In this document: piece by piece, positions 8,784 to 36,085 of the stretch | Layout: the number at the start of each line of letters is the position of its first letter | How positions within the stretch are numbered: the first letter of the stretch is position 1 | From: Nitrospirales bacterium | GTDB taxonomy: Bacteria; Nitrospirota; Nitrospiria; Nitrospirales; UBA8639 | Length of the DNA: 64,000 nt | Assembly (NCBI GenBank): GCA_965223685.1 | Contig: CBDCXG010000003.1 | Span: forward strand, 166,362-230,361 | Direction of reading: 5' to 3' | Program-made: the position numbers and the translations under genes | The notes under the pieces: model-generated | Told to the model about the DNA's origin: nothing | What the model saw: only the letters and a program-made list of their open reading frames with translations | Databases searched by the model: none

Positions 8784-8866
8784 AGGCACCTCTAAAAACT
8801 GGTGTTTTTTTCTGAGGGCAAGGAAGCCGCGCGCGAAAAACCGCCTTGTAGGGGCCAATACAAGGA

Positions 8867-9070
8867 GGGAGTGTTGAATAATGAAGATATCAATGGCCAT
8901 ATTTCGCCAGGAGGCCCTTGGCGATCGTCTGTTCAAAAAAGTCCGTCCAGTCCTGTCCTGCGGCCTCCCGAAGGGAAGGCAGCAAGCCTTTTTGCGCGCG
9001 GAGCGTACTGGCACTACGTGAACACGGAAAAAGGGCGAGTACGCGGCTGGCGGCTTTTTTCAACAGACCC
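8867..9070. mobile_element. MITE-A copy 1 (204-bp variant)
   Basis: Ends GGGAGTGTTGAA / TTCAACAGACCC; flanked by direct repeat AAGGA (8862-8866, 9071-9075). Confidence 0.9.
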
Positions 9071-9082
9071 AAGGATGAAGGC

Positions 9083-10492
9083 GTGACAAACCCGTCGGCA
9101 GCTCAAGTAGCACCTGGTTGTCGCATCCGCTCCATCTCCTATTGCGTGTCCTGTGCTGTGTCAATACTTGTGCTGTCAACGCTTCCAGTTAAAGCGAACG
9201 ACAGTGGCGCGAACTTGGCTGCGCCAGCAATCGAGTCAGTCTACGACCCATATCGCGGAATGGACGAGGATGGCCGGATTCCCAAGATAGACAAGGCAGC
9301 CTTAGTTGCTCGGCCAGAACGCTGGCGGGATGTGCCGGAGGGGCGACTCAAACCCGGCGGATTTTTCGAGCGTTTCCTTATCTCAAGCTTCCTGGTTCCG
9401 CTCTTTTTCGCCAACTCCGATGTTGGGATTGGAGTAGGTGCAGCGCTCACCGATATTGATTTCCGTGCACAACGTCGCCGGGAGTTCATGGGGGCATTTA
9501 TCTCCTACACGACCGAAGGCCAGCAGAGTTATGTGTTACGCTGGCGACGCTGGGTTAAGCATCTCGAAGTCCTACCTGGAGGCGTGCTTCAGGAAGAGCG
9601 CAGCTTTTTCAGCCTAGGCGGGGGGTATCGGAAAACACTGACCCGTCGTTTCTTTGGAATTGGTCCTTCTACCCGAGAAAGTCAGGAGACCAGCTTTACC
9701 GACGCAGTCGCTTTTCTGGACCTTGGGCTTTCAACATCTCTGGAGGGGGCATTTGACGACGTTGTTCTGGATGTAGGGTTGCGAGGAGAACACCACTGGC
9801 TCAGCCGGGGCCGAGTCGGGGACGCCGGACAAACCGACAGAGAGTTTCCCAAGCTCTTCGCCTAGGCGGATCCCTATGGCCTCGGCTGGGTAGCCGCTGG
9901 AGTTCGCTGGGACACGCGCGATAGCCAGCGTAATCCCTATCGTGGGACGGTTCTAGGAGCAAGGGTCGATGCCGCACTACTCCAGAACAATTGGAATCGT
10001 GGTGCGATCTACCGACTCTTTGGTGATCAGTTAATCCCCGTCCCAGGACTGTTTCACGACGGAGGAGACAAGGACGAGGAGCATCCTCCAACTGACACCG
10101 TCGCGATTCACCTTGAGAGCCAACTCAGCTCTGGTGATTTACCTTTTTTTGCTCTCCCCACACTTGGCGGCAGTAGAGTGTTACGGGGATATATCGCGGG
10201 TCGTTGGCGGGACGATGCAGCCTGGGCCACAGCGACGGAATATCGCTTCTGGGTTTTCCCGCGGGGATTCAATGTGTGGCGGCATATTCGAGTCGAACGC
10301 CTCGGGCTGGCGATCTTTTACGAGCTCGGTGGTGTGGCATCGGACGGACTTCGCTTTTTTCAGGAACGTGTGCGTCAAAGCTACGGGATCAGTGGGCGCT
10401 TCACTTTAGAACGTGCGGCCATTTTCCGTGCCGATTTTGGGTTCTCGGAAGATGGCGTCAATTTCTCAGTGGGCTTCGGCCTACCCTTTTGA
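9083..10492 (+). pseudogene. BamA/TamA (Omp85) family outer-membrane beta-barrel gene with an in-frame TAG at 9863-9865
   Basis: ORFs 8918-9865 and 10178-10492 share one frame, which stays open after the TAG (ADPYGLGW...DTRDSQRNPYRG...LGGSRVLRGY...); C-terminal FSVGFGLPF beta-signal; signal-peptide-like N-terminus. Confidence 0.75.
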
Positions 10493-11186: not shown

Positions 11187-11275
11187 AATGACTGCGAACT
11201 CGCCGAGAATATCTGTTCGCCAATGGGAATGAATTCTAGGGCTTCGATGGTCCCAACATGACCCAAGAGCGGACT
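11187..11275. repeat. Degenerate palindromic gene-boundary repeat, copy R1
   Basis: AATGACTGC...CTAGGGCTTCGA...ACCCAAGAGCGGACT; shares ends with copies R2-R7. Confidence 0.55.
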
Positions 11276-11360
11276 AAAGATGTTTCTGGTTTGTGATAGT
11301 CTTCCCGAATCTTCATGCCCTCAAGCATAATATGAACCTCATTATTCCGAGGATCTATCC

Positions 11361-11939
11361 GTGATAGAAATTGACCGCTTGGATCATTTAGTCCTAACTG
11401 TTGCCGATGTTGAAAAGACCGTAGCTTTTTACGAAAGGGTGTTGGGGTCTGTTGAAAAAAGCCGCCAGCGACGTTCTCGCTATTTTCCCGTGCTCACATA
11501 ATGCCAGTATGCTCCGCGCGCAAAAATAGCTGCGGCCTTGCTGAACGGACTTTTTTGAACAGATCCAAGGCCTCTGACATCTTATGTCTCAAAGACTAAA
11601 TGTGGCCATTGATATCATCATTATTCAACAGTTCGTTTAGGGATGAAGCGAGTTTCATGTGGCGAAGGCCGCATAGCCTTGTCATTTGGAAATCAGAAAA
11701 TTAACTTACATCAACTTGGCCAAGAATTTGAGCCAAAGGCTGGGAATGTAGGGGCAGGTAATGCTGATCTGTGTTTTATCTTGAAAACGCCTATAGAGGA
11801 AGCTCAAAGACATCTTGAACAATGTGGGGTCGCAATTATAGATGGGCCTGTAGCACGAACCGGAGCGGTTGGGAACATGACATCACTCTATTTTAGGGAT
11901 CCCGACCTGAATCTAATCGAAGTTTCGAAGTATGAGTGA
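11361..11939 (+). pseudogene. VOC/glyoxalase-family gene split by MITE-A
   Basis: GTG 11361 (GAGGA RBS) encodes MIEIDRLDHLVLTVADVEKTVAFYERVLG; the insertion brings a stop; the frame resumes at ATG 11643 (MKRVSCGEGRIAL...SLYFRDPDLNLIEVS). Confidence 0.9.
11445..11635. mobile_element. MITE-A copy 2, inside the VOC gene
   Basis: Collinear with the 191-bp copy at 22866; right TIR and TSD are degenerate. Confidence 0.88.
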
Positions 11940-11942
11940 GCA

Positions 11943-12183
11943 AATGACAACTTTTGGCCAAAAGCTCTAGGTTTGAAGATCGACAGGACGCAGCCCAGGC
12001 CGTGTGAAAACTTCACTGCCATCTAAGGGTAGAAATACACTTCACAAGCAGCGTGACAAGCCACTGCTTAGCCCTGGATGCGATAACGTCTATCAGTGGG
12101 TGGATTGATTGGCCTCAACTGAAGACTTGAAAGGCTTAAAGGCAATTTCAGAAGGTCGTTTTCACACCGCCCATAGCGGACGT
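11943..12183. repeat. Palindromic gene-boundary repeat R2, interrupted by MITE-B
   Basis: 11955-11997 TGGCCAAAAGCTCTAGGTTTGAAGATCGACAGGACGCAGCCCA nearly matches 14635-14677; continues as TAGCGGACGT after the insert. Confidence 0.8.
11998..12171. mobile_element. MITE-B copy 1 (174 bp, IS1182-like ends)
   Basis: TIRs GGCCGTGTGAAAAC / GTTTTCACACCGCC; CA duplicated on both sides; alignable with 37660-37837. Confidence 0.8.
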
Positions 12184-12274
12184 GCAAGAAAGAACCCCCC
12201 CTTTTCTATGTAATAATTCCCATATTGGGAGTATATACGCGTAAAATGTCTGTATAAAAAGAAGTTAAACGAAT

Positions 12275-13078
12275 ATGTATCTGGTCAAACTCCTTAAAAA
12301 AAATTACCGGGCTCTAGCAATTTCTCATGGTAAGTTGAGAATTGGAACGATAAATTACTATCGAAAAATTGAAGACAACACACGGAAAGATTCCGAAGAG
12401 GGACTCGGTAACATTATTTGGGCTGGCAACAAATTACCTGCAGATCAATTCAATAAGATTTTCACTCCCTTCGACAACGTGTCACTGAAAGAGGGATGGG
12501 CAATAGAAAATAACGGAGCAAAAATCATCGGAGCATCTCCAAATTTCAACTTGTTCATTTTTTGTTACAGTTGGATTGATGATATTTCAGAAATCTCTAA
12601 AATATCCGAGAGTAAGGCAACTGACTATTTTTTTATAACCGACCTTCATCAGTTCGTAATTAAACTTACAAACGAGGTAAAAAGGATTGGGTTCGAAATG
12701 GTCCATCAATATGAACCTGAAAGAGCCGAAGAAATAATCAAAAGGACCACAGTTGTTGATACAACATATAAAGTATTCTATTCTAACGAATCCAAATCAC
12801 GAGTTGTAACTGAAGAAAATGTTGAGAATTTCGAAGTTAAGAAATTCCTGTCCTTTGATCTTTTTCAAAAAAACAAATCATATGAGTTTGAGCAAGAAGT
12901 TAGGACAGCATGGACTTTTGTTTACCAAGATGAAAAAGGGCGTAAACAGGCCCTACAATTACCCCATCCAGACCTTGATTACATTGATGTCGAAATTGGC
13001 GAATTACCAATTTCATTGGAACCTTCAATAAATAAATATCCAATCAAAACATCTTGTCCTAAACCAAAAAACGTCTAA
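12275..13078 (+). CDS. Hypothetical protein, AT-rich orphan
   Basis: 267-aa ORF, visibly lower GC than its neighbours, no motif recognised. Confidence 0.7.
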   Translation: MYLVKLLKKNYRALAISHGKLRIGTINYYRKIEDNTRKDSEEGLGNIIWAGNKLPADQFNKIFTPFDNVSLKEGWAIENNGAKIIGASPNFNLFIFCYSWIDDISEISKISESKATDYFFITDLHQFVIKLTNEVKRIGFEMVHQYEPERAEEIIKRTTVVDTTYKVFYSNESKSRVVTEENVENFEVKKFLSFDLFQKNKSYEFEQEVRTAWTFVYQDEKGRKQALQLPHPDLDYIDVEIGELPISLEPSINKYPIKTSCPKPKNV

Positions 13079-13116
13079 TGGCTGCTAAACGTAGATCTCC
13101 GCTCTGAGCCGTCATT
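13077..13116. repeat. Palindromic gene-boundary repeat R3
   Basis: AATGGCTGCT...GAGCCGTCATT imperfect inverted repeat overlapping the upstream stop codon; CTAGGATTGA motif follows. Confidence 0.55.
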
Positions 13117-13283
13117 GCATGGTCGGCGCTAGGATTGAGGCCCAACAGCACAGGCCGGAAACCGACCACCTTGGGGTAATCAAGATGCCATTCAACCTAT
13201 AACATACAGGGGACTCTGGCAAGCAAACCCTGACTTCAGATATTGGAAAAATTGGACATATTTTATTTGTTTGCAAGGGCTAT

Positions 13284-14081
13284 ATGTCTACATTTACCTG
13301 GGATGCTCGGGACTATGAGAAGCACTCACACGCCCAAAAGAAATGGGCAAGAGAGTTAATAGCGAAGATAGACCTTGAGAAGACTGAAGCTATTCTTGAT
13401 ATAGGCTGTGGGGATGGAAAAATAACCGCAGAGCTTGCGAATTGCGTTCCCTATGGCCGCGTTGTTGGCATCGATAGCTCCAAAGCAATGGTGGAACTTG
13501 CGAAGAATGTCTATACGGTTAGTAAGTATCCAAATCTTTCGTTCGTGAATATGGATGCTGTGCATTTGGCTTTTAAAGAGCAGTTTGACGTAGTGTTTTC
13601 GAATGCCGCCTTGCATTGGATCAAAGATCATGGCCCAATGCTAAAAGGGATCTTCAGAAGTCTGAAGTCCAGAGGTCGGGTGTTGTTACAAATGGGAGGC
13701 AAAGGGAACGCAGAAGGTGTCCTTTCTGTCTTACAAGAACTCCAGAAACAACTACGATGGCGTCAGTATTTTTCAGATTTCAAGGTTCCGTATGGTTTTC
13801 ATGGACCTCCCGAATACTCAGAATGGTTGCGTGAGGTGGGCTTTACTATTGAGCGGGTAGAGCTTATACCCAAAGATATGGAACATGAGGGCAAAGCAGG
13901 TTTGGCTGCATGGGTCCGAACAACGTGGTTGCCCTTTACGGAACAAGTACCACCAGAGCAACGAGATCAGTTCATTCATGAGGTGGTCGAGAAATATATT
14001 GACCGCGCACCACTTGATGCACATGGCAAAGCACATGTTGCCATGATGAGATTAGAAGTGGAGGCTTCTAAAAAACTATAA
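13284..14081 (+). CDS. Class I SAM-dependent methyltransferase (trans-aconitate methyltransferase-like)
   Basis: ILDIGCGDG motif I, VVGIDSS, FDVVFSNAALHW. Confidence 0.9.
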   Translation: MSTFTWDARDYEKHSHAQKKWARELIAKIDLEKTEAILDIGCGDGKITAELANCVPYGRVVGIDSSKAMVELAKNVYTVSKYPNLSFVNMDAVHLAFKEQFDVVFSNAALHWIKDHGPMLKGIFRSLKSRGRVLLQMGGKGNAEGVLSVLQELQKQLRWRQYFSDFKVPYGFHGPPEYSEWLREVGFTIERVELIPKDMEHEGKAGLAAWVRTTWLPFTEQVPPEQRDQFIHEVVEKYIDRAPLDAHGKAHVAMMRLEVEASKKL

Positions 14082-14101
14082 CTTTTGCATGTAGGTGAAT
14101 C

Positions 14102-14501
14102 TATGATTACTGCAGAAAGCGACACACGTGCATATCTCACACGCTTCTCCAATGGCACGTATGATGGATTCGCTGACACCATACACGAAAAAGGTGGAGG
14201 AGAGCGTGGCTTTCGCCCACACGACTTGCTGGAGGCTGCTCTGGCATCTTGTATCAATATGACGGTACGGATGTACGCCGATAAGCATCGCATTCGTTTA
14301 GAAGGAGTGACAACGAAAGTGTCATTGAATCGAGATACGGAGGGGGAAGCTCGTTTCGAGTATCACCTCGAGTTCCTTGGAGAACTTGAGCCGGATCAGA
14401 AAGAACGGTTGTTTAAGGTGGCGGAGCAATGCCCAGTTCGCAAAACACTTTCGCGTACCATTGCGTTTGGATATCTAAGTGAAGAGAAATGTGACATGTA
14501 A
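14102..14501 (+). CDS. OsmC/Ohr family protein
   Basis: GFRPHDLLEAALASC...RMYA and AEQCPVRKTL (two conserved Cys). ORF track opens at TTG 14085; the exact start is uncertain. Confidence 0.85.
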
Positions 14502-14620
14502 TCCAGTCTGAAATGACTCAGGTCGCCCTAGCCCAAATTGGGAAATGTAAGCGAAACGGCATTTTGTTGCGTCAAAAGTATATAAAAGGCCTAAACAGAC
14601 GAAAAGGCATGGAGATATAT

Positions 14621-14688
14621 AATGTGACCGTTCCTGGCCAAAAGTCCTAGGCTTGAAGATCGACAGGACGCGGCCCACAGCAAACATT
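14621..14688. repeat. Palindromic gene-boundary repeat R4 (uninterrupted)
   Basis: AATGTGACCGTTCCTGGCCAAAAG...GCGGCCCACAGCAAACATT; near-identical core to R2. Confidence 0.8.
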
Positions 14689-14737
14689 GGGAATCGAGTC
14701 TCATCCAAAAATTTTACGATGTCTTAAAGGAATGACT

Positions 14738-15283
14738 GTGAAAACAAGCGAACTAGTCTGGCAGGAGTACCATACGAAATTGGCTAGGTTCATACGAAGC
14801 CGGGTGACAGAGGAAGCAGTGGATGATCTGTTACAGGATGTGTTCATGAGGATTCACTCGCGCCTTGACTCCCTGAACGACGATGCGAAGCTGGAAAGTT
14901 GGTTGTATCAGATTACTCGCAATGCCATCACAGACTATTACCGTTCTCAGCGAAAGACAGAAGATCTTCACGAATGGATAGAACAACCTCCACCCGAAGA
15001 GGCCGACACGATTAGGAAGGAGCTGTCAGCCTGCCTGGAACCGATGATTCAGGAGTTGCCTGACAAATATCGCCACGCCATCCAACTGTCTGAACTTGAA
15101 AATAAGACGCAACAAGAAGTGGCTGAACAGGAAGGCATTTCATTATCCGGGGCAAAATCCCGCGTCCAACGAGGGCGAGCCATATTAAAAGACATTCTGG
15201 AAGACTGCTGTCAGTTTGAGCTGAACCAGCAGAATCAGATTCTTTCGTACGAGAAAAAGAAAGAGAAGGGGAAATATTGCTAG
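14738..15283 (+). CDS. sigZ: ECF sigma factor, SigZ family, with C-terminal Cys residues
   Basis: DDLLQDVF, WLYQITRNAITDYYR, region 4 SLSGAKSRVQRGR; ends EDCCQF...GKYC; GTG 14738 fits AAGGA spacing. Confidence 0.85.
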   Translation: MKTSELVWQEYHTKLARFIRSRVTEEAVDDLLQDVFMRIHSRLDSLNDDAKLESWLYQITRNAITDYYRSQRKTEDLHEWIEQPPPEEADTIRKELSACLEPMIQELPDKYRHAIQLSELENKTQQEVAEQEGISLSGAKSRVQRGRAILKDILEDCCQFELNQQNQILSYEKKKEKGKYC

Positions 15284-15294
15284 GTCGTCTTTTT

Positions 15295-15322
15295 TGCGTC
15301 TTTTTCCTCCCGTCTCCGTCTA
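15295..15322 (+). promoter_or_regulatory. Candidate ECF-type promoter for arsM
   Basis: TGCGTC followed by CGTC motifs about 40-60 nt upstream of the arsM start; CGTC is a common ECF -10 core. Assignment is inference. Confidence 0.35.
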
Positions 15323-15362
15323 TAGGGGTAACATGACTTTATTCACCCAACGGGAGGCTCAA

Positions 15363-16157
15363 ATGAACACTCAAGTAAAAAATGACAACATTCGTCAGAT
15401 CGTGCGTGAACGCTATGGCACCATTGCCGTATCTGACAATAACTCGTGTGCCACGAATTCATGTTGCCCGGGTGGCGATGCCAAGGCCACCTCAATGAAT
15501 CTGGGCTATTCGAGTGCTGATGTTAATCAAGTACCCGAGGGAGCCAATATGGGTTTGGGGTGCGGCAATCCCCGGGCCATCGCTTCCTTGAAAGTCGGGG
15601 AGACGGTCTTAGATTTAGGGAGTGGCGGGGGCTTTGATTGTTTTCTTGCCGTGAAGGAAGTGGGGGAAGACGGGACGGTAATTGGTGTGGATATGACCCC
15701 TGACATGGTGAGTAAAGCCAGAGCGAATGCCGACAAGGTAGGCTATACCAATGTGGAGTTTCGCCTTGGGGAAATAGAACATTTGCCTGTTGCCAATGGT
15801 GTGGTTGATGTCATTATTTCCAACTGCGTGATCAATCTGTCACCTGATAAAGCTAAGGTGTTTCAAGAAGCTTATCGGGTGTTGAAACCAGGCGGACGGT
15901 TGGCCATTTCAGATATCGTCGCGAGTGCTGAGCTACCGGAACCACAGAAAAACGATATGGCATTGTTCACGGGGTGTATGGCAGGCGCCTCATTCATCAC
16001 AGAGATTGAATCCATGCTGAAAGACGCTGGGTTTGAAGCAATCGACATCAAGCCGAAAAACAACAGTCAGGAATTTATCCGAAAATGGGCGCCAGATACC
16101 AAGATTGAGGACTATGTCGTATCCGCCTATATCGAGGCCATTAAGCCTGCCACTTAA
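15363..16157 (+). CDS. arsM: Arsenite S-adenosylmethionine methyltransferase
   Basis: SCC, LGCGNP, VLDLGSGGGFD, ISNCVINL, FTGCMAG; GGAGG RBS before ATG 15363. Confidence 0.9.
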   Translation: MNTQVKNDNIRQIVRERYGTIAVSDNNSCATNSCCPGGDAKATSMNLGYSSADVNQVPEGANMGLGCGNPRAIASLKVGETVLDLGSGGGFDCFLAVKEVGEDGTVIGVDMTPDMVSKARANADKVGYTNVEFRLGEIEHLPVANGVVDVIISNCVINLSPDKAKVFQEAYRVLKPGGRLAISDIVASAELPEPQKNDMALFTGCMAGASFITEIESMLKDAGFEAIDIKPKNNSQEFIRKWAPDTKIEDYVVSAYIEAIKPAT

Positions 16158-16233
16158 CAAGCATGTCTATTCGAGCAGAGCAAAGTGTCACGGCTTTGCT
16201 CTGCAGCTTGGAGCGGCCGTTTCCGAGAGGAGC

Positions 16234-16271
16234 GATGACCATTCTGGCCGAAAGTGACCAACGCGGACATT
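16234..16271. repeat. Palindromic gene-boundary repeat R5 (short form)
   Basis: GATGACCATTCTGGCCGAAAGTGACCAACGCGGACATT shares both ends with R4. Confidence 0.65.
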
Positions 16272-16329
16272 CAAAGATAAGACTCTTATCATGCCTAACC
16301 CTTATTAAGGCCACACCAGGAACGTTGAT

Positions 16330-16971
16330 ATGTTTCTCGTCAAATTGATACCTCCAAGGCTGCTCTCCAGACAAGCTAGAAAACCATCTGGTTGGTTTGG
16401 ACGTGTGGTGATGTCCCGAATTTTCAATAAGGGAAATGCTGAATTAAATCATTTCATCAAAGACCTCTTGGAACTGCAGGAACATGATACTGTTTTGGAG
16501 ATCGGATTTGGGCCAGGTTTATTATTAAGTCAAATGGCTCAAACCACCACGAAAGGCTTTGTGGAAGGCATTGATTTCTCAGAAGCCATGGTGGCTCAAG
16601 CCCAAAAAATTAACAAACACTATATTGCTCAGAAGAGAGTAAAAATTCAGAAGGGTCATTGTGACAACTTGCCATATGGCCCGGAGTCATTCGATAAAGT
16701 CTGCACGTCAAATACGATTTACTTTTGGGAAGACCCGAAGGCCATCTTCAATGAAATCTTTCGGGTGCTCAAACCAGAAGGTAAACTGGTGATCGGATTT
16801 AGAGATGCCGATCAAATGAAGACCCTCCCTCTCAGTAAGGAAGTATTCCATTTTTACACGATGAAGGACGTAAAAGGCTTCTTGACCCAAGCAGGATTTT
16901 TTCCTGTCCGGATTGAAAAAATGGAAGGCCAACCGTTGGTTTCTTATTGCGCCGTGGGTACAAAAGCCTAA
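16330..16971 (+). CDS. Class I SAM-dependent methyltransferase
   Basis: VLEIGFGPG motif I, GIDFSEAM, FDKVCTSNTIYFW. Confidence 0.9.
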   Translation: MFLVKLIPPRLLSRQARKPSGWFGRVVMSRIFNKGNAELNHFIKDLLELQEHDTVLEIGFGPGLLLSQMAQTTTKGFVEGIDFSEAMVAQAQKINKHYIAQKRVKIQKGHCDNLPYGPESFDKVCTSNTIYFWEDPKAIFNEIFRVLKPEGKLVIGFRDADQMKTLPLSKEVFHFYTMKDVKGFLTQAGFFPVRIEKMEGQPLVSYCAVGTKA

Positions 16972-16999
16972 AAAAATCACAACGCCGGCTCTCGACCCA

Positions 17000-17063
17000 G
17001 GCTGTGTGAAAACTCCTCAGCCAACTGATGGTAGAGGTCGACTTCAAAGGCAGCATGATCCGT
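17000..17063. mobile_element. MITE-B copy 2 (left part only, cut by IS630), inserted in repeat R6 (16981-16999)
   Basis: ...CTCGACCCA|GGCTGTGTGAAAAC...; internal sequence alignable to the other MITE-B copies up to the IS end. Confidence 0.75.
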
Positions 17064-17065
17064 TA

Positions 17066-17961
17066 TAGTCATTCCAAATAAGTTCCTGATGCTGTATACT
17101 GCTGGGCACTATGGCCTATAGCATCGATTTACGACAACGAGTGGTAAAGTTTGTTGCTGCTGGGGGCAGCAAGGCCGAAGCCGTTCGGCGTTTTCACGTC
17201 AGTATTTGGTGCGTCCACGATTGGTGTGGGCGAGCTGACTTAACCCCCAAGTATCCTCCAACCCGCCGACGCAAGTTAAATCGCGCGGCCTTGCGACGAC
17301 ATGTGACCCAGCACCCTGAGGCGACGCTCCAGGAGCGGGCTAGCCATTTCGGAGTCCGAATCAATGCAATCTGGTATGCACTCCGCCAGGAGCACATCAC
17401 TCGTAAAAAAAACTCTTCGGTACGCTGAACGGGATTCCACCCAGCGGGCCGCCTATCTTGCGCAACGGCGCCAGCTCCATCTGACCCAAGCCACCCCCCC
17501 CAGTGGTCTATCTCGATGAGAGCGGTTTTGAGCGCACAGCCTACCGCTCTCACGGATGGGCTTGCCGCGGCCAACGAGTGGCAGGGGAACGGAGTGGCCA
17601 GTCTCGTCCCCGCACCAGCTTGATCGCTGGGAAATGGGGCCAGCGCCTGCTAGCTCCCGTCCTCTTTGCAGGCAGCACGAATGCTGAGTGGTTCAATATC
17701 GGGCTCGAAGAGCATCTGTTTAAAGAGTTGGCTCCCCACTCGATCCTCATCATGGATAATGCCGCGTTTCATAAAACGGCGAAGCCCCGTGAGCTGATCG
17801 AACAAGCGGGGCACACGCTGCTGTTTCTGCCTCCGTACTCCCCGGATTTCAATCCGATTGAACAAGACTTTGCGACGATCAAGAAACGCTGGCAATATGC
17901 TTCGTCAGAGAAGTCGTTTGAAGAGATTCTCCGATTGTATGGAACTTAATTGGAATGACTA
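17066..17961 (+). mobile_element. IS630-family insertion sequence
   Basis: TIRs TAGTCATTCCAAATAAGTTCC / GGAACTTAATTGGAATGACTA, TA on both flanks; HTH ORF plus DDE ORF. Confidence 0.93.
17111..17949 (+). CDS. IS630 transposase, two ORFs joined by a probable -1 frameshift
   Basis: ORF A (MAYSIDLRQRVV, HTH) ends just after an A run at about 17404-17412; the -1 frame is open from there to VYLDESGF...LIMDNAAFH...LPPYSPDFNPIE. Confidence 0.9.
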
Positions 17962-17981
17962 TAATTGGAGAGCGACAGGCG

Positions 17982-18689: not shown

Positions 18690-19528
18690 CGGGCGAGGTC
18701 CTTATCGGGATTAGGCGTCATTTGCGATCGAATCCAGTCGTACCATTGTGGCATCCCTTCTCCTGTTGTCGCGGAAACCTGGAAGACCTGTATTTGTGGG
18801 TTCACCATTTTAGCACTATCCAAGCACTTCTGGACATTAAATGAAAGGTGCGGGAGCAAGTCGATTTTATTCAAGATCATGACCTGCGCCGATTGAAACA
18901 TGTGGGGATATTTCAATGGCTTGTCTTCCCCCTCTGTTGTGGAAAGAATGGCAACCTTGGCCTGTTCACCCAGATCAAAGAGCGCTGGACACACAAGATT
19001 TCCCACGTTTTCAATGAACACAAGTGAATGGGGCGGTGGGGCCAGCTCGTCTAATCCCCGGGCGAGCATATCCGCTTCAAGATGACAGCCGGCCCCGGTG
19101 TTGATCTGAACCACTCGACATCCGGTTTGCTGGATGCGTTCTGCATCATGCAGCGTCTCCTGATCTCCTTCAATCACTGAAATGGTTATCGCATCGCGCA
19201 AATGGCGAATGGTGTGTTCGAGAAGTGTCGTTTTGCCTGATCCAGGGGAACTGACTAAATTGAGCGCCAGAATATCTTTAGCCTGAAACCATCCTCGGTT
19301 CCGTTCCGCTAATCGATCATTCTTACTGAGAATGGCTTGTTCAAGGAGCACGGTGTGTTCATGGTCATGAGTGTGATGGTCGTCATGATGAGCATGAACG
19401 TGATCATGTTCGTCATGTGAGTCATGTGCGTGGGTATGCGGGTGACTAGTGACGGGATTCGTCTTCCCGGTCTCGAGATTGGTTACGCGAGGAGTCATCG
19501 TGTCAGAACATCCGCAGGTCGTACACAT
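18683..19528 (-). CDS. hypB: Hydrogenase nickel incorporation GTPase HypB
   Basis: CTTCGC N-terminal site, His-rich stretch, SSPGSGKT, CH, ENVGNLVCP, NKID. Confidence 0.97.
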   Translation of the reverse strand: MCTTCGCSDTMTPRVTNLETGKTNPVTSHPHTHAHDSHDEHDHVHAHHDDHHTHDHEHTVLLEQAILSKNDRLAERNRGWFQAKDILALNLVSSPGSGKTTLLEHTIRHLRDAITISVIEGDQETLHDAERIQQTGCRVVQINTGAGCHLEADMLARGLDELAPPPHSLVFIENVGNLVCPALFDLGEQAKVAILSTTEGEDKPLKYPHMFQSAQVMILNKIDLLPHLSFNVQKCLDSAKMVNPQIQVFQVSATTGEGMPQWYDWIRSQMTPNPDKDLARC

Positions 19529-19857
19529 TAGGCTTTCACCATTTGCTTAATGTTAAGCTCAGAACCCGTACATCGCGAAATATCATTCGAGCCGCATGGA
19601 CAGGGATCAAACATCTGTGTGAGAGTAAATTGGGCACCGCAGGCATGACATTCCCCAGTGCCAGGAGTTTCAATGATTTCTAGCGTCGCTCCCTCTGCGA
19701 CGGTTCCTTTGGTGACCAGATCAAAACAAAACCGAAGGGCATCTGGCAGGACGGCACTGAACTTTCCAATTTCCAAGGTCACCTGTGTGACCTTGGCGCC
19801 ATGAGCTTTTTCAGACACGATTGAGACAATGTTACGTGTTAAACTTAGCTCGTGCAT
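19528..19857 (-). CDS. hypA: Hydrogenase nickel metallochaperone HypA
   Basis: MHE N-terminus, CHAC...CPCG zinc site. Confidence 0.95.
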   Translation of the reverse strand: MHELSLTRNIVSIVSEKAHGAKVTQVTLEIGKFSAVLPDALRFCFDLVTKGTVAEGATLEIIETPGTGECHACGAQFTLTQMFDPCPCGSNDISRCTGSELNIKQMVKA

Positions 19858-19911
19858 CGATCCATCTCTTGCTGAAAATGACGGTTCTTAGGGGTGTCCT
19901 TGATTTCTTGC

Positions 19912-21003
19912 TCAGCAAATTCGAGGTAATTGTTCTCCCACCAATGTGTCCACGATTCGTGAGCCGCCGAAGGACGTCGACAACAGTACCGTCCCAGCGG
20001 GTGATTTTTCCACGGTTCCAATGATCGCACTGTGTTGCCCTCCAGGATGCTGTTGCATCGTCGCAATGAGTTCTTGAGCGCGATCTTGCGGCACGATGGC
20101 CACTAATTTACCTTCATTCGCCAAATACAGCGGATCAAGCCCTAATATTTCACATGCTCCACGAATTGATTCCCTGATGGGCAGGGAGGACTCAAGCAAA
20201 CGTATAGAAACTCCAGCGGCAGTGGCAAACTCATTTAGCACCGTGGCGACTCCGCCACGTGTGGCATCTCGCATACACCTGATATCGGGGCACACCGCTA
20301 ACATCTGGGCAATCAAATCATGGAGAGGCTTCGTGTCACTTTCGACATTGGACGCCAAGGCCAATTCATTTCTCGCCAGAAGAATGGCGATGCCATGGTC
20401 ACCGATGAAGCCATTGGTCACGATGGCATCACCAGGCTGAGCTTGTTGTGCCGAAATGGAGATCCCTTCAGGAACGATTCCAATACCCGAGGTATTGATG
20501 AACAGCTTGTCTGCTGACCCTCGTTCAACAACTTTTGTGTCCCCTGTCACTATGGTGACTCCTGCGCGGTCAGCAGCTCGCTTCATGGAATCGACGACGT
20601 GGGTGAGTGTGTCCATCGGGAGCCCTTCTTCCATCACCATGCCGCACGACAGATAGAGCGGGCGGGCCCCGCTGACGGCCAAGTCATTGACGGTGCCGTT
20701 CACGGCAAGTTCACCAATATCCCCTCCTGGAAAGAATAGTGGATGGACGACATAACTATCCGTCGTAAAGGCCAGTCGATTGCCATGCGGAAGAATCTCT
20801 TGCAATGGCAAGAGCGCTTGATCCTCCAGGGCTTCAAGAATGGGATTATGAAAGGTGCTGACAAAGACGTGTTGAATGAGATCTCTCATGGCTCTCCCGC
20901 CTGAGCCATGGGCAAGAGTAATTCGCTGATCCCGCACAGTTGTCGTCCCTGATGCGATCGATGCGGGAGCCAATTTTCGAGATGCAAAAGTCGGTTGGTT
21001 CAT
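19912..21003 (-). CDS. hypE: Hydrogenase maturation protein HypE
   Basis: ITLAHGSGG, FTTDSYVV, GTVNDLA, DATRGG, C-terminal PRIC; start placed after the hypD stop. Confidence 0.97.
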   Translation of the reverse strand: MNQPTFASRKLAPASIASGTTTVRDQRITLAHGSGGRAMRDLIQHVFVSTFHNPILEALEDQALLPLQEILPHGNRLAFTTDSYVVHPLFFPGGDIGELAVNGTVNDLAVSGARPLYLSCGMVMEEGLPMDTLTHVVDSMKRAADRAGVTIVTGDTKVVERGSADKLFINTSGIGIVPEGISISAQQAQPGDAIVTNGFIGDHGIAILLARNELALASNVESDTKPLHDLIAQMLAVCPDIRCMRDATRGGVATVLNEFATAAGVSIRLLESSLPIRESIRGACEILGLDPLYLANEGKLVAIVPQDRAQELIATMQQHPGGQHSAIIGTVEKSPAGTVLLSTSFGGSRIVDTLVGEQLPRIC

Positions 21004-21019
21004 ATGACAGATTTTTTCG

Positions 21020-22165
21020 TTATGCGGGGACGTGTATGGGTTGAATGTCGTTTCGATCAATCCAACCATAGTTATAGTAGGCAGCACAGGCGCCTTCTGT
21101 GGAGACCATCAACGCGCCTAAGGCATTCTCTGGTGTACAGGTCGTCCCAAAGACTTTGCATTGATTGGGCTTGATCACCCCTTTTAATACCTCCCCGCAT
21201 TGACAGGATGTGGGGTCAGCAATCGTGACATTCGGAACCGAGAATTTGCGTTCAGCGTCGAATGCAGAAAATTGCTGACGAACGCGCACTCCTGAATGAT
21301 CAATCGAGCCTAAGCCTCGCCATTCAAAGAATTCTCGTAGTTCAAAGACGCGATGAATGGCTTCAAGTGCCTGCGTATTCCCCTGTTGTGGCACAATACG
21401 CTGGTATTGATTTTCAACCTCGCATCGGCCCTCGGTCAGTTGCTTCAACACCATCCAGACGGATTGCAAAACATCGAGTGGTTCAAAGCCCGCGATCGTA
21501 ATGGGTTTGCCATAGTGTTGTGCGATAAAGGTATAGGGAGCCGTGCCAATGACCATGCTGACATGCCCAGGTCCAAGAAATCCGTCAAGTTGCAAGTCTG
21601 GAGAATCCAAGACGGCCTTAATCGTGGGAATGATGGTGATATGATTGCAAAACAGTGAAAAATTTTTAATCCCTTCCTCGTGGGCCTTGAGAATCGTCAG
21701 GGCTGTGCTGGGCATCGTGGTCTCAAATCCCAATCCAAAGAACACCACTTCTTTATCTGGGTTGGCTCGGGCAATACTCAGGGCGTCGAGAGGAGAGTAG
21801 ACCATCCGGACATCCGCCCCGTCGGCTTTGGCCTGCAACAAGCTCTTCTTCGATCCCGTTACACGCATCGCGTCCCCAAAGGTCGTCATGATGACATCTG
21901 GTCGTTCTGCCAAAGCCACGCAATCATCCACCCGTCCTCGTGGTAATACGCAGACTGGACACCCAGGGCCATGAATGAACTCCACCGATTCGGGAAGCAT
22001 TTTGTTAATCCCATATCGAAAAATGGTATGGGTGTGTCCACCGCAGACTTCCATGATGTACACCGGGCGGTGACGGCACGTATCGATACGTTTGACCAAT
22101 CCTTGGATTTCTTGGAGGAGCCCCTGAGCTTTTTGAGGATCACGAAATTCATCGACGAACTTCAT
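21020..22165 (-). CDS. hypD: Hydrogenase maturation protein HypD
   Basis: MEVCGGHTH, GPGCPVC, GFETT, GPGHVS, MVSTEGACAAYY. Confidence 0.97.
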   Translation of the reverse strand: MKFVDEFRDPQKAQGLLQEIQGLVKRIDTCRHRPVYIMEVCGGHTHTIFRYGINKMLPESVEFIHGPGCPVCVLPRGRVDDCVALAERPDVIMTTFGDAMRVTGSKKSLLQAKADGADVRMVYSPLDALSIARANPDKEVVFFGLGFETTMPSTALTILKAHEEGIKNFSLFCNHITIIPTIKAVLDSPDLQLDGFLGPGHVSMVIGTAPYTFIAQHYGKPITIAGFEPLDVLQSVWMVLKQLTEGRCEVENQYQRIVPQQGNTQALEAIHRVFELREFFEWRGLGSIDHSGVRVRQQFSAFDAERKFSVPNVTIADPTSCQCGEVLKGVIKPNQCKVFGTTCTPENALGALMVSTEGACAAYYNYGWIDRNDIQPIHVPA

Positions 22166-22854
22166 GGCGTGTCCTTTGGTCGCGCGAGCGCACCACGTTT
22201 ATCGGCAAGCAGCGTATGCACGAGATCCCACATAATGTGATAGATGAGCACGTGACATTCCTGCACTCGGTGAATGCTATCTGTTTCCACGATCAAACAA
22301 TGATCAATCGCCGAGGAGGTCGCCATACGTCCGCCTGCCCCTCCGGTCAAGGCGATGGTCGTTAACCCCATCTCTTTGGCTTTTTCGAAGGCCCGTAGAA
22401 GATTCTCTGAGTTACCACTGGTTGAGGCCCCGATGAGGCCGTCCTCGGGTTTTCCTTGTGCGATGAGTTGACGAACAAAGATATGGTCGAACCCAACATC
22501 ATTTCCTACCGCCGTCATCATGGCTTGATCTGATGCCAAATTCATCGCGGGAAGAGACGGTCTTCCCGCTGTGACAGGATGAAGAAATTCAACAGCCACA
22601 TGAGCGGCATCGCAGCTGGATCCACCGTTGCCCATCGTCAAAAGCCGACCTCTATTCTGAAAAATGGAAGCGATGGCTTGGGCGACATCAACGACCCCTT
22701 GTGCAGATTTCGCAAAAAAGCCCTGCATCACATGCACACTATCTTGGGATTTGCGAAGCGCGGATTCCAATAATTCATGGTCGAGACGCGCGTGATCCTG
22801 TCGGTCTGACTGCAGAAACGGGTACAGAGATGACAAGGTATCTTGTGTGGACAT
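22162..22854 (-). CDS. SIS-domain protein (GmhA/phosphoheptose isomerase-like) inside the hyp operon
   Basis: GNGGSSCDAAH, AVGND, STSGNSEN, HRVQECH; overlaps the hypD start by 4 nt. Confidence 0.88.
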   Translation of the reverse strand: MSTQDTLSSLYPFLQSDRQDHARLDHELLESALRKSQDSVHVMQGFFAKSAQGVVDVAQAIASIFQNRGRLLTMGNGGSSCDAAHVAVEFLHPVTAGRPSLPAMNLASDQAMMTAVGNDVGFDHIFVRQLIAQGKPEDGLIGASTSGNSENLLRAFEKAKEMGLTTIALTGGAGGRMATSSAIDHCLIVETDSIHRVQECHVLIYHIMWDLVHTLLADKRGALARPKDTP

Positions 22855-22865
22855 GTTTCAATACC

Positions 22866-23056
22866 GGGTCTGTTGAAAAAAGCCGTCAGCGGCGTTCTCG
22901 CCATTTTTCCGTGCTCACGTAGTGCCAGTACGCTCCGCGCGCAAAAAGGGCTACGGCCTTGCTGAACGGACTTTTTTGAACAGACCCGAGGCCTCTGACA
23001 TGTTACGTCGCAGAGGCGAAATCTGGCTGTTGATATCATCAATATTCAACAGTCTC
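22866..23056. mobile_element. MITE-A copy 3 (191 bp)
   Basis: Ends GGGTCTGTTGAA / TTCAACAGTCTC; TSD ATACC (22861-22865, 23057-23061). Confidence 0.93.
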
Positions 23057-23061
23057 ATACC

Positions 23062-23343
23062 TTATGACGTATTGGATTGTCGCATCGCCTCAAGCTCTGT
23101 TTGCACCTCACCCATTTCGGTCAAGAGTTCAATCGTTCGTTTGGCTTCGTCCTCATCGATCCGGCTCATCGCAAACCCCACATGTACGAGCACCCAATCT
23201 CCGACACAGGAAGCGGGAGGATGTTCATCATCGACGATACAGGCGATATTGACCTGACGTCGAACACCCCCGACATCAACCATCGCCAGTTTGTTCTCCG
23301 CACTACTAATCTCAACGATCTGTCCAGGTATCCCTAAGCACAT
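23062..23343 (-). CDS. hypC: Hydrogenase maturation chaperone HypC
   Basis: MCLGIPG, VLVHVGFA. Confidence 0.97.
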   Translation of the reverse strand: MCLGIPGQIVEISSAENKLAMVDVGGVRRQVNIACIVDDEHPPASCVGDWVLVHVGFAMSRIDEDEAKRTIELLTEMGEVQTELEAMRQSNTS

Positions 23344-25754: not shown

Positions 25755-26968
25755 GTTGAACTCAGCGTTTCGTTACATGACCAAAGCTGAATGCGATTGT
25801 TTCCCGAGTCAGCCACGACGATCGTTTTCCCGCAAGCTTGTACGCTATAAGGCCAGCATAGGCTTTCTCTTCTCGGAAAACTCCATTGATTGTCACCCTT
25901 GGCATTGAATGTGGGTTGTCCGGCTAAGCCTGTAGCTTTTGCACCTGTGTGGAGATGAGAAGGCGACCATCCCAGTAATCGGGAGTTCGCCGTGTCTGCG
26001 GTTAGCAAGCATGATCCACAGTTGGTAATGCCATAAGGCATGTTGAGTGTCTCAGCTCTTGGCCAGTACAAACTCCGGTTATGATCAACCGAGTGAGAGG
26101 TGTGTTGTCCGAGAATCCATTGGCAGTCAGCACCATGATGCGTCGGAATACCCGCCCAAATCATGATTCGATTGTTCCCTGCATCCGCGACGCAGAGATT
26201 CCCGTTCCACATCGTGATGCCATGAGGCCACCGCATACTCATGGCATTGGGATCGCCCCCAGCGTTTTCGTCTCGGCAATCAAATGAGCGTTGTCCAAGA
26301 ACAAGATCGGCTGGTTGTCCATGTCGCGTCGGCAGGGTGTGCCAAACCAAGACCCTACGGTTGCCGGTATCCGCCACAAACAACGTTTCGCCACTCGACC
26401 AAACACCGTACGGCCAATGCATTGAGGCAGCAGTGGGGGCTTCTTTTCCCCGATTGGCTTCCATGGAGTACATGTCGTATTGGCCTAAGACGATATCCGC
26501 AGGCGTATGGCTGTTGTGGGGAACGGTTTTCCACATCAACACGCGATGGTTCCATGCATCAGCGACGACCAATCCCTTTTGGTAATGAGCGATGCCGGTC
26601 GGAACATTCAACGTGCTAGGGCCTGGTCCGGCTTTGGCGTTGCGGCCTTCGGATTCGAAATGTGGTTGGCCGATCAGCCAATCTGCCGGGGTATGATCCT
26701 CAGTAGGTGCGCGCTTCCAACCCATGAGACGATGATGTCCCGTATCCGAAACCCACAGTGGTCCATCAGGTGAAACCAAACACGCGCCGCGTGGTCCAAA
26801 CAGGGTTGAGGAGGACGGTGCGATGGGAATGGGAAGCCCTCCGGCATCACGACACTCTCCTAAGACGGCGGAAGGGGCCGTTTCTTGGAACAACGATTCA
26901 GGAACCTCAGGACACACCTCTCTGGGTTGTAACGCAGGCGTAGGAGAGATGTGCAAAACCGTATTCAT
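25751..26968 (-). CDS. NHL-repeat beta-propeller protein of the extended hyp operon
   Basis: Repeated xxVSDTGHHR / VADAWNHR / VADTGNRR / VADAGNNR / TADTANSR / VADSGNNR units. Confidence 0.9.
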   Translation of the reverse strand: MNTVLHISPTPALQPREVCPEVPESLFQETAPSAVLGECRDAGGLPIPIAPSSSTLFGPRGACLVSPDGPLWVSDTGHHRLMGWKRAPTEDHTPADWLIGQPHFESEGRNAKAGPGPSTLNVPTGIAHYQKGLVVADAWNHRVLMWKTVPHNSHTPADIVLGQYDMYSMEANRGKEAPTAASMHWPYGVWSSGETLFVADTGNRRVLVWHTLPTRHGQPADLVLGQRSFDCRDENAGGDPNAMSMRWPHGITMWNGNLCVADAGNNRIMIWAGIPTHHGADCQWILGQHTSHSVDHNRSLYWPRAETLNMPYGITNCGSCLLTADTANSRLLGWSPSHLHTGAKATGLAGQPTFNAKGDNQWSFPRRESLCWPYSVQACGKTIVVADSGNNRIQLWSCNETLSST

Positions 26969-26974
26969 GAACTT

Positions 26975-27895: not shown

Positions 27896-27900
27896 GGGTG

Positions 27901-28125
27901 TTACCGATACTTCAAATCACGAAACAGCCGAGGTTGAAGGGCTCCTGCCACCAGACTCGCAATGATGACCGCCAACCACACGCTGATTCCTGCCTTGGTC
28001 AATGCAACAATGCCGACTGCGGCTAAACCAGCTCCAACGGCCATGAGCATCATGACTTTGTTGAAATCCTGAAACAATTTGCCCTTCAGAAAGAGTTGGA
28101 CTGAGTTCCAAAACATGTCAAACAT
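27901..28125 (-). CDS. Small membrane protein of the extended hyp operon
   Basis: 74 aa, two hydrophobic helices, closely spaced in the operon. Confidence 0.75.
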   Translation of the reverse strand: MFDMFWNSVQLFLKGKLFQDFNKVMMLMAVGAGLAAVGIVALTKAGISVWLAVIIASLVAGALQPRLFRDLKYR

Positions 28126-28147
28126 GGGGTAATCTCCTTTTAGAAAA

Positions 28148-28366: not shown

Positions 28367-28400
28367 AGTCTTCCGTCTCCTTTCACTGAGATCTACGTCA

Positions 28401-29426: not shown

Positions 29427-29453
29427 GGCGTTGTTGCTCCTCAATGTGATATT

Positions 29454-29469
29454 TGCGCATCCTATGCCA
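29454..29469 (-). promoter_or_regulatory. Weak candidate sigma54 promoter for the TPR-hyp operon
   Basis: TGGCATAGGATGCGCA has GG-N10-GC spacing but lacks the TT before GC. Confidence 0.3.
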
Positions 29470-36081: not shown

Positions 36082-36085
36082 GTTC

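Follow-up and report, generated by a model that had tools for sequence, protein, structure and literature searches.

Introduction

Integrons are, to our knowledge, seen as the only general means for bacteria to gather and reshuffle single-gene cassettes, and the Xer-dependent dif modules are, as far as we know, regarded as a peculiarity of Acinetobacter plasmids. A stretch of 64,000 nucleotides from a Nitrospirales bacterium (contig CBDCXG010000003.1, positions 166,362 to 230,361; hereafter the window, numbered from its first letter) carries, between 11.2 and 17.0 kb, five co-oriented accessory units with a repeat at every unit boundary. An earlier note on this DNA had proposed that these repeats are not attC sites and that they mark a gene-capture system distinct from integrons. 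In our estimate, and with a probability of about 0.6, the repeats are what is left of a decayed array that has no recombinase and belongs to a widespread site-specific system of module exchange, apparently undescribed, to which integrons and the Acinetobacter dif modules are the closest in logic. A search of the open-access literature by sequence and by concept returned nothing on this site or on the candidate enzyme described below, only work on integrons and on the Acinetobacter dif-module system.

A family of 28-bp sites

The canonical site is 28 bp long, ATGTCCGCTTT-N6-AAAGCGGACAT, and consists of two 11-bp inverted arms around a 6-bp spacer (11-6-11). It was defined on loci fetched from other genomes and from metagenomes for comparison with the window, which are designated here by L-numbers. 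Metagenome contigs scanned for the form with the spacer TGGCCG gave at least 120 contigs (soils, marine sediments, TARA and others). In the fetched loci, 256 distinct sites have the exact 11-6-11 layout and a fixed 17-nt arm-to-arm register; their spacer is TGGCCG in 169 cases, a class favoured by the search pattern, and GGGTCG/CGACCC in 55, a class that was not selected for. A 7-nt spacer is found beside some int genes. The sites of L015 are exact (ATGTCCGCTTT-TGGCCG-AAAGCAGACAT and ATGTCCGTTAA-CGACCC-AAAGCGGACAT). Such a fixed layout with two equivalent arms is typical of the core sites of tyrosine recombinases.

Sites occur singly or as inverted doublets (a-spacer-b ... c-spacer-d), in which conservation is good in the outer arms (a and d) and looser in the inner ones (b and c). 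At least two sites are present in 62 of the 120 listed loci, with a median spacing of 738 nt, and 28 pairs are doublets at most 100 nt apart. Arrays of single sites between small open reading frames (ORFs) are found in L104 (five sites in 2.1 kb), L068, L061 and L110, and an array is also present in L015; the single sites within arrays are perfectly preserved. Naive ORFs of at least 120 aa contain 17% of 253 sites, though they make up 79% of the bases. The typical unit has a CGACCC-type site at one end and an inverted TGGCCG-type site at the other. Among oppositely oriented flanking sites, the left spacer is CGACCC or GAGCGA and the right one TGGCCG or TGGCAC (L015, L111, L140–L143 and others); directly oriented runs also occur (L104). 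The genes near the sites are diverse, as 104 Pfam families were recognized among 145 ORFs, none of them dominant, and many ORFs have no family. Clustering of about 1800 ORFs around the sites revealed no recurrent neighbour gene. Canonical doublets fold by pairing a with d and b with c around a partly unpaired spacer (z-scores of −4.5 to −8.9), which is the topology of a folded attC.

Copies from Enterobacterales have the same arms with the spacers TGGCAC and GAGCGA. Enterobacterial plasmids that carry the site include 64 records from Pantoea and 37 from Klebsiella, besides others. In E. coli, a match was found in 2207 of 5426 genomes (354 with at least 80% of the query), the median being one place per positive genome. 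The two places examined both bracket hypothetical genes, one within a lambdoid prophage and the other within a CP4-like island. A scan of viral contigs found the site on 6 contigs, mostly at their ends, and the site is thus not typically viral.

Several loci show further conserved sequences near their sites. A leader of about 45 nt (GGTAAAAAGYTAAGAGATACTTTCTGTTAAAYTTTCYTTAGYC) precedes three sites of L015 (28–70, 2262–2307 and 3114–3159), so that the repeated unit in this lineage is longer than the 28-bp site. On marine-sediment contigs (L061, L067, L098 and L104), a conserved GACTATAGC lies about 16 nt upstream of the sites. A recurrent cargo module (L030, L033, L036, L059 and L088) opens with a conserved palindromic GTTAACAGTTAATATGCA...TGCATAT before the start codon, possibly an operator carried in the module. 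Defence-type genes (DUF2971, TIR/SEFIR, HNH, WYL) are bordered by sites and by the small recombinase described below in E. coli SE11 (L143, 6225–9392) and in Providencia (L148, 10697–13753), and the modules of enterobacterial islands may often be anti-phage genes.

The repeats of the window

A full copy in the window can be read as two half-degenerate sites separated by 0–45 nt. The left one comprises arm a (~ATGwCCGCTyy), the spacer TGGCC(A/G) and a poor arm b, and the right one a poor arm c, the spacer (G/A)(G/A)CCCA and arm d (~nAGCGGACAT). Copies R1 to R6 were located at all boundaries of the 11.2–17.0 kb array, where the earlier note had placed them (Table 1). Not all of them are full copies: R6 is a half-site, R2 and R6 are interrupted by a miniature inverted-repeat transposable element (MITE), and R3 and the left arm of R1 are weak. 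The earlier note took them for palindromes; the arms are indeed inverted, and the copies are better described as paired core sites of recombinase type than as simple palindromes. The seventh copy that it had put near 37642 (R7) is real and MITE-interrupted, and an eighth (R8) was added, 6 of the 8 falling within 6 kb. The near-identical 43-nt core that it had seen in R2 and R4 is 91% identical. R4 has this core without the MITE and thus shows the empty form of R2. The motif CTAGGnTTGA, reported for several repeats, was recovered in R2, R3 and R4 and, as a variant, in R1.

A position weight matrix (PWM) trained partly on the window is circular, and matrices built from outside copies alone were used to assess window significance. 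They gave 7 matches of at least 12 bits in the window against 3.35 expected, i.e. the window copies alone are barely above chance. The right arm of R2 (15–18 bits) is the sole individually convincing window arm; the right arms of R5 and R1 reach 10.5–11 and 9.8 bits, respectively, and R8 scores 11.3 bits with an independent PWM (20.7 bits with one partly trained on R8 itself). Degenerate patterns for either arm were not enriched in the window, and a relaxed paired-arm scan of it gave mostly noise. A candidate arm at window position 42107 was dropped, as it is the start of an ion-channel gene. The window copies are taken as real because there is one per gene boundary, because they share spacer motifs, because three of them carry a MITE inserted at the same point and because the family exists outside the window.

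The opinion that the repeats are not attC sites was borne out. No RYYYAAC/GTTRRRY box is present in either orientation of R1–R8 or of canonical outside copies, whose arms are ATGTCCGCTTT and AAAGCGGACAT. Rfam 15, at gathering and E-value thresholds, recognized no family, either in the window or in loci that have canonical copies. No run of T follows the stems or arms, in the window or in outside copies. Every substantial ORF of the window was run through Pfam, and no integron integrase was found, the sole tyrosine recombinase being a XerC-type protein (see below).

Insertions of mobile elements at the sites

A MITE with the terminal inverted repeat GGCYGTGTGAAAAC, the A-module, interrupts R2, R6 and R7, always at one and the same point of the site; the R6 copy is truncated. 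In R2, the insertion lies exactly at the junction between the spacer and the right arm (d). The MITE is about 130–180 nt long, and every copy seen, in the window and in L002, L003, L010, L012, L013, L162 and L166, lies at the spacer/arm junction of a 28-bp site. The window has 6 occurrences of its end pattern where 1.35 would be expected, and no shuffle reaches 6; a scan of genome contigs for the end gave five relevant loci, in metagenome-assembled genomes of Nitrospirales. Full-length IS5/IS1182-like insertion sequences (IS) encoding DUF772 and DDE_Tnp_1_6 domains, with the related end GTTTTGACACAGCC, lie directly against arms in L014 and L017. Together with the A-module MITE, they look like an IS family that targets the 28-bp sites, as the IS1202 family does with the pdif sites of Acinetobacter. 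The idea that the A-module and the arms form a single MITE with long terminal inverted repeats, from which the repeats would be deletion derivatives, was dropped, as R4 corresponds to R2 without the module and canonical sites occur without any module.

Another family, MITE2 (end GGGTYTGTYGAAAAAAGCCGCCAG), has at least seven copies in the 64 kb, one of which inactivates the VOC gene of the array. An end similar to that of MITE2, TATTCTGTTGAAAAACTC, interrupts site spacers in L014 and L023.

Modules that travel and are reshuffled

The AT-rich orphan gene of the array has 13 homologues (38–58% identity) in quite different genomes, on Nitrospirota-like, alphaproteobacterial and gammaproteobacterial contigs. 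In L015/L016, L014, L017 and L019, they are preceded by ...AAAGCGGACAT and followed, shortly past the stop codon, by ATGTCCGCT... In L015/L016 (GC content of 47%), AATGTCCGCTTTTGGCCGAAAGCAGACATGTCCGTTAACGACCCAAAGCGGACATA stands ahead of the homologue and AATGTCCGCTTTTGGCCG... 30 nt past its stop codon, within a 4-kb stretch that stops at a tRNA-Ala gene and contains five places of this kind. The homologue of L014 (55% GC, adjoining hut genes) has one arm 73 nt before it and the other 12 nt after it. L019 is an alphaproteobacterial contig that carries GcrA; there, the homologue forms a lone insertion among core genes and has palindromes on either side. In L017/L018, the upstream arm is cut by an IS5/IS1182-like element, which leaves ...CGGACATTC. 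As the homologues are flanked by the same arms, the gene and its arms have travelled together across phyla.

The order of modules varies among the relatives of the window, and module ends coincide with the arm/spacer junction. The relatives of MT213, the 213-aa methyltransferase gene of the last unit, are 82–84% identical. Their neighbours are arranged as SnoaL, a 74-aa gene, MT213, sigma factor, ArsM-like methyltransferase and CopB in L162/L164/L167, as LysR and MT213 in L166, and as SnoaL, SnoaL_2, MT213, a 62-aa gene and NhaP in L168/L169; the window order is sigma factor, ArsM-like methyltransferase and MT213. In the window and all relatives, the same arm and spacer (...CGGCTCT-CGACCC, -CGATCC or -CAACCT) are found 3' of MT213, those of R6 being retained behind the same gene in both L162 and L168. 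L168 has an intact site (right arm CAAGCGGACCT), and in L162 and the window a MITE follows instead. Likewise, the sigma module retains its own 5' arm (CAGCAAACATT/GGGAATCGAGTC in the window, AAGCTGTTATT/GGGAATCAAGTC in L162), and the ArsM module its 3' arm with TGGCCG, the arm and spacer of R5 being found downstream of ArsM in L162 too. Other loci show the same kind of breakpoint: L038/L084 and L063/L068 are homologous up to a site and unrelated beyond it, and L030, L033, L036, L059 and L088 have a common downstream module and differing upstream DNA.

The earlier note had put forward variation of gene content among relatives as a check; module order was found to differ among them, and the array is not fixed. 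Those of its proposed checks that were run all favoured its interpretation. Its proposal of gene capture at recombination sites outside the integron framework gains support from the 11-6-11 family at module boundaries in many genomes and from the same arms on the same cargo across phyla. The co-occurring recombinase that it had suggested looking for has a candidate in other genomes.

A small Xer-like recombinase

This candidate is a tyrosine recombinase of about 200 aa. The first lead came from the annotated plasmid pVag1 of Pantoea vagans (L140), which encodes a 200-aa "site-specific integrase" (WP_135910941.1) between a TGGCAC half-site and a GAGCGA site. Two of the 120 loci that had been chosen for the site alone (L095 and L110) encode a homologue at 57–59% identity, between GGGTCG-type and CGACCC-type sites. 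The gene lies between inverted sites in pVag1, L095, L110, L144 and L149; in L144 these are CTGACCGCAAA-GGGTCG-ATAAGCGCCCA and TGGGCGCTTGT-CAGCCA-AGAGCGGTCAT. In Providencia, it is found in a smpB-adjacent island, at the edge of a strain-variable region, and a half-site follows it. In total, six lineages have the gene between sites of this kind. In L159, it stands amid small accessory genes, two glyoxalases included, between core genes. Where present, the gene is inside a doublet, which gives units of about 0.7–0.85 kb, and gene-less doublets such as R1, R2, R4 and R8 of the window therefore look like its deletion derivatives.

The protein consists of the Phage_integrase catalytic domain and little else, without any N-terminal domain. 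Among NCBIfam models, it matches those of XerA, XerC and a DNA invertase best, with scores far below cutoff, and on the integron-integrase model TIGR02249 (cutoff of 265 bits) it scores 19 bits. Of the solved structures, those of XerD, XerC-like, XerH and XerA proteins are the nearest (E~1e-6). The family is large, with at least 8000 clusters at 90% identity for E<=1e-20 and 1161 clusters at 50% identity for E<=1e-30, and many of its members are on contigs of 0.7–3 kb. This small Xer-like recombinase is the most likely enzyme for the sites. A Providencia chromosome (CP077260.1; L146, 16832–20077) also carries three tandem tyrosine-recombinase genes, of the recombinase-in-trio type, in an island with the small recombinase; this trio is missing from the otherwise identical L145 and L147.

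One recombinase sequence (P0105) is found on ten contigs (L149–L158) from a series of related samples, and its surroundings vary. Past its stop codon, the contigs that reach the site read ...ATGGTCGCTTA-CCGGCC-, L158 ending before it. In seven contigs (L149–L151, L153–L155 and L157), this is followed by AGAAGTGGTCAT and flank A, and in L152 by AAAAGCAGGTAT and flank B with a different first gene; L156 begins the same divergence (AA) and ends there. The opposite side has an invariant -GGGTCG-ATAAGCGACCA, which follows CGTAACGA and ATGACCGCTTT in seven contigs and AGCGA and ATGTCCGATAA, with another flank, in one. Arms thus stay with their flanks across an unchanged spacer, as would be expected if strands were exchanged within the spacer. 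L154 has a Chlor_dismutase module joined in inverted orientation, via a site that keeps the usual arm of that module.

Model and alternative explanations

Combining these data, the following model can be drawn. The tyrosine recombinase would bind the arms and exchange strands inside the 6-bp spacer, which would be the overlap region. Between sites with like spacers in direct orientation, the intervening module and one junction would be excised as a circle, and the reverse reaction would insert the circle at any compatible site; between inverted sites, the segment would be inverted. Repeated exchange would build arrays of unrelated modules, the content and order of which differ among relatives. 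The substrate could be either duplex or folded single-stranded DNA. The arrays of the window (11.2–17.0 kb and 37.6–40.1 kb) would be fossils, comparable to a cluster of attC sites without integrase, as suggested by their drifted arms, a dead cargo gene, MITE and IS insertions and the lack of a recombinase nearby. More broadly, and with slightly less than even odds in our view, there may be a second, integron-independent cassette system spread over several phyla, made of a minimal, catalytic-domain-only Xer-like recombinase of about 200 aa and a sequence-conserved 28-bp site, with doublets that mimic folded attC; it would act on single-gene modules of chromosomes, plasmids, genomic islands and prophages by capturing, inverting and exchanging them, and the window would hold one of its fossil arrays.

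Several observations weigh against module exchange by such a recombinase. The window copies are so degenerate that single arms lack significance with outside-trained matrices, and as single-stranded DNA they fold no better than shuffles (z about 0). The window has no copy of the small recombinase, and the link between recombinase and site in other genomes is one of adjacency. The two sites that flank a unit usually differ in their spacers, and a spacer-dependent recombinase would therefore not join them; site orientation within arrays is mixed. In L154, compared with L149, the breakpoint is at the outer edge of the arm and not in the spacer, which does not fit one simple crossover from the major form. 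The population variants are metagenome assemblies, which may be chimeric at repeats, and the pattern used in the metagenome search had pre-selected near-consensus copies. Finally, some of the cargo looks like ordinary chromosomal genes (for example NhaA, CorA, ABC binding proteins), which would also fit a dispersed intergenic repeat.

The main alternative, though unlikely, is that the 28-bp units are selfish palindromes similar to the repetitive extragenic palindromic (REP) sequences and their REPIN doublets. Non-autonomous, they would be copied into intergenic DNA by a single-copy HUH transposase of the REP-associated tyrosine transposase (RAYT) type, would accumulate where DNA is dispensable, draw in IS and be passive hot spots of rearrangement, the cassette look being a by-product. 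Besides the ordinary neighbour genes, this would explain the palindromic units, the folding of inverted doublets as long hairpins, the strictly intergenic location and the insertion of IS and MITEs into the sites, as IS insertion into REP sequences is known. However, REP families are typically confined to one species or genus, with tens to hundreds of dispersed copies in a genome, whereas the same arms are found in Nitrospirales, in Alpha- and Gammaproteobacteria and in Enterobacterales. Moreover, the copy number in E. coli is low and the window copies are clustered, the single sites of arrays show no decay, and arms segregate with flanks across a constant spacer. No Y1/HUH transposase was detected among the approximately 1800 ORFs or in a Pfam census of 0.52 Mb around the sites, where a single-copy gene is easily missed; a tyrosine recombinase did appear there. 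Quite improbable is the view that each unit is a passenger cassette with 28-bp terminal inverted repeats, i.e. a mobile insertion cassette moved in trans by a DDE transposase, with doublets as back-to-back ends. The left and right sites of a unit are indeed inverted copies differing at only 2 spacer positions, their cargo-proximal arms are the better conserved ones, and the outer-edge breakpoint of L154 would be in keeping with a transposon end. Yet no autonomous IS with such ends was seen: the nearby IS5/IS1182-like elements, IS630 and MITEs have other ends (GGCTGTGTSAAAAC for the IS5/IS1182-like elements and the MITEs), and the IS5/IS1182-like elements and MITEs interrupt the sites. No target-site duplication was noticed at unit ends, in inspection that was not a systematic search. 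Many array junctions are one site shared by two units (L104, L068), which is not expected of end-to-end transposons, and the fixed core with equivalent arms points rather to a recombinase.

The two remaining explanations are very improbable. An ordinary integron remnant, in which the repeats would be divergent attC sites of a cluster without integrase (CALIN), would account for co-oriented small accessory genes with a repeat after each, for cargo types common in integron cassettes (VOC, methyltransferases) and for the four-box layout of doublets with a variable centre. Against it stand the missing AAC...GTT boxes, the 11-nt boxes with 6-nt spacers, the conservation across phyla of box sequence and not of structure alone, the score of the recombinase on the integron-integrase model and the lack of IntI in the window. 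As for unrelated weak hairpins, terminators or operators that share a few bases by chance, the near-shuffle scores of single window arms and their folding z-scores would be expected, but neither the identity of R2 and R4 nor three independent MITE insertions at the same motif point, nor the same arm and spacer after orthologous genes in relatives, nor canonical sites around orphan homologues elsewhere; and the stems lack a T-run.

Module exchange at the 28-bp sites would explain the co-oriented row of unrelated, compositionally different genes beside the hydrogenase locus of the window. If true, it would mean that cassette-type exchange arose at least once more, in Nitrospirota, Alphaproteobacteria and Gammaproteobacteria, including mobile elements of Pantoea, Providencia, Klebsiella and E. 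coli. It would also provide a new marker for delimiting accessory modules, for instance in defence-rich islands, explain contig breaks around such regions and make available for study a very small recombinase whose 28-bp site is defined.

The array and its surroundings

The gene calls agree with the earlier note in that every real gene of the 11.2–17.0 kb array is on the + strand, and also with the sharp differences in composition that it had noticed, as the GC content of the orphan is 0.33–0.37 against 0.43–0.53 in neighbour genes. The VOC unit was found with the gene and boundaries described; the gene is not intact. When the parts on either side of its insert (11361–11447 and 11640–11936) are joined, they give a complete Glyoxalase domain (positions 1–121 of 121, E=4e-12). 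An IS630-family element sits within the truncated MITE of R6 and terminates the array at its right end. Its right side is followed by a LysE-like gene and then by a hyp/[NiFe]-hydrogenase cluster with a full hyp set. This locus directly adjoins the module array, and the R7–R8 unit lies on its opposite side. To the left of the array are an EthD gene on the opposite strand, a further MITE2 copy and a frameshifted gene for an outer-membrane-type protein, which has MITE2 copies on its flanks and is probably a pseudogene; its pieces have no Pfam match. The XerC-type protein of the window is a housekeeping one, as indicated by its gene context.

Table 1. Positions of repeats, cargo genes, mobile elements and neighbouring loci in the window.
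Feature	Position	Strand	Remarks
MITE2 copy	~8800–9070	−	
Outer-membrane-type gene	8918–10492		GC-rich (0.55–0.60); one protein split over several frames, C-terminus ...GFGLPF
MITE2 copy	10507–~10720		
R1, degenerate doublet	11188–11276	+	left arm ATGACTGCGAA (11188–11198); right half-site GACCCA-AGAGCGGACTA (11260–11276) facing VOC unit
VOC/glyoxalase cargo, pseudogene	11361–11939	+	192-nt insert (11448–11639) splits gene and contains MITE2
MITE2 copy	11445–11563		
R2, doublet	11944–12183	+	ATGACAACTTT-TGGCCA-AAAGCTCTAGG ... GCAGCCCA / TAGCGGACGT; 174-nt A-module MITE at 11998–12171
AT-rich orphan cargo gene	12275–13078	+	267 aa, no Pfam match
R3, weak copy	13078–13154	+	left arm ATGGCTGCTAA overlapping orphan stop codon; contains CTAGGATTGA; right half-site GAGGCCCA-ACAGCACAGG
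Two-gene cargo	13284–14501	+	class I S-adenosylmethionine (SAM) methyltransferase (13284–14081) and OsmC-like (14103–14501)
R4, intact doublet	14624–14688	+	clearest copy; GTGACCGTTCC-TGGCCA-AAAGTCCTAGG ... GCGGCCCA-CAGCAAACATT
Two-gene cargo	14732–16157	+	extracytoplasmic function (ECF)-type sigma factor (14732–15283, 183 aa) and ArsM-like methyltransferase (15363–16157, 264 aa)
R5, compact copy	16235–16271	+	ATGACCATTC-TGGCCG-AAAGTGACC/AACGCGGACATT
One-gene cargo MT213	16330–16971	+	213-aa class I SAM methyltransferase; other neighbours in relatives
R6, half-site	16981–17062	+	AACGCCGGCTCT-CGACCC-A (16981–16999), then truncated A-module MITE (17000–17062)
IS630-family insertion sequence	17063–17964	+	24-nt terminal inverted repeats (96% complementary); transposase in two ORFs, HTH_Tnp_IS630 (17111–17428) and DDE_3 (17503–17949)
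Hydrogenase locus	19528–37564		HypA, B-like, E, D, F; [NiFe]-hydrogenase small and large subunits; HycI-type protease; sigma-54 response regulator
MITE2 copy	~22866		
MITE2 copy	~30270	−	
MITE2 copy	31462		
R7, single site	37641–37849	+	GTGGTCCGCTCC-TGGCCC-AAAGCGGATAC, interrupted by A-module MITE (37660–37837)
Two-gene unit	37944–39725	−	340-aa protein without Pfam match and DUF4198 protein; bracketed by R7 right arm and R8 left arm
R8, doublet	39986–40061	+	eighth copy; GTGACCGCTTC-TGGCCG-AACTCTGCCGA ... GACCAC-TCTAACCGGACGC
MITE2 copy	~41905–42030		
XerC/XerD-type recombinase	53804–54808		canonical, 334 aa, in trmFO(gid)-xerC-hslV-hslU cluster

Comparison with known systems

Like REP/REPIN sequences and their RAYT transposases, the 28-bp family consists of short intergenic palindromes with hairpin-forming inverted doublets, which are targets of IS and lie at rearrangement points. 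Unlike them, it keeps the same sequence across phyla, has a low and clustered copy number with well-conserved singlets, and accompanies a tyrosine recombinase and not a HUH enzyme; no GTAG-type cleavage motif was noticed. With mobile insertion cassettes and MITEs, it shares passenger genes between inverted repeats without a transposase inside, and short gene-less derivatives (the doublets, compared with the int-bearing unit of about 0.7–0.85 kb). It differs from these in that no matching DDE IS was found and no target duplications were seen (again without a systematic search), in that neighbouring units share single sites, and in that the long form encloses a tyrosine recombinase gene.

The likeness to integrons is closer. 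In both cases, arrays consist of small, unrelated and often orphan genes with a recombination site after each. Canonical doublets have four boxes, with conserved outer and looser inner ones, a short spacer in each half and a centre of variable length, and on their folding outer boxes pair with each other, as do inner boxes; the window copies do not fold in this way (z about 0), and many sites are simple 28-bp ones of duplex type. Arrays without a nearby integrase exist in both (CALINs; the window), and other mobile elements target the sites. In contrast to attC, the 28-bp family has no AAC/GTT core, has 11-nt boxes and 6-nt spacers, and conserves box sequence across phyla. Single sites of double-strand type (a-spacer-d) are common in it, and the orientation of genes and sites is mixed. 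Its candidate recombinase, of about 200 aa, has no N-terminal domain and does not match the IntI model, and no attI or Pc arrangement was seen around the sites.

The Acinetobacter dif modules (pdif sites, XerC/XerD) are also bounded, as discrete accessory modules, by 28-bp sites of 11-6-11 layout; the two sites of a module are usually mutually inverted, and modules are shuffled between replicons. The arms of the 28-bp family are probably unlike dif, as those of E. coli dif (…GCGCATAA / TTATGTTAAAT) do not resemble the E. coli and Pantoea copies of the 28-bp site. A dedicated IS family targets the pdif sites of Acinetobacter (PMC10132070), and the MITE and IS insertions in the 28-bp sites parallel it. 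The 28-bp family differs from dif modules in its two arms, which are near-identical to each other (homodimer type), and in its inverted doublets. Its sites are chromosomal and found in several phyla, whereas dif modules belong to Rep_3 plasmids of one genus, and a small dedicated recombinase gene is embedded between them, in place of the host XerC/XerD. The 28-bp site family would work like integrons and dif modules and is a member of neither.

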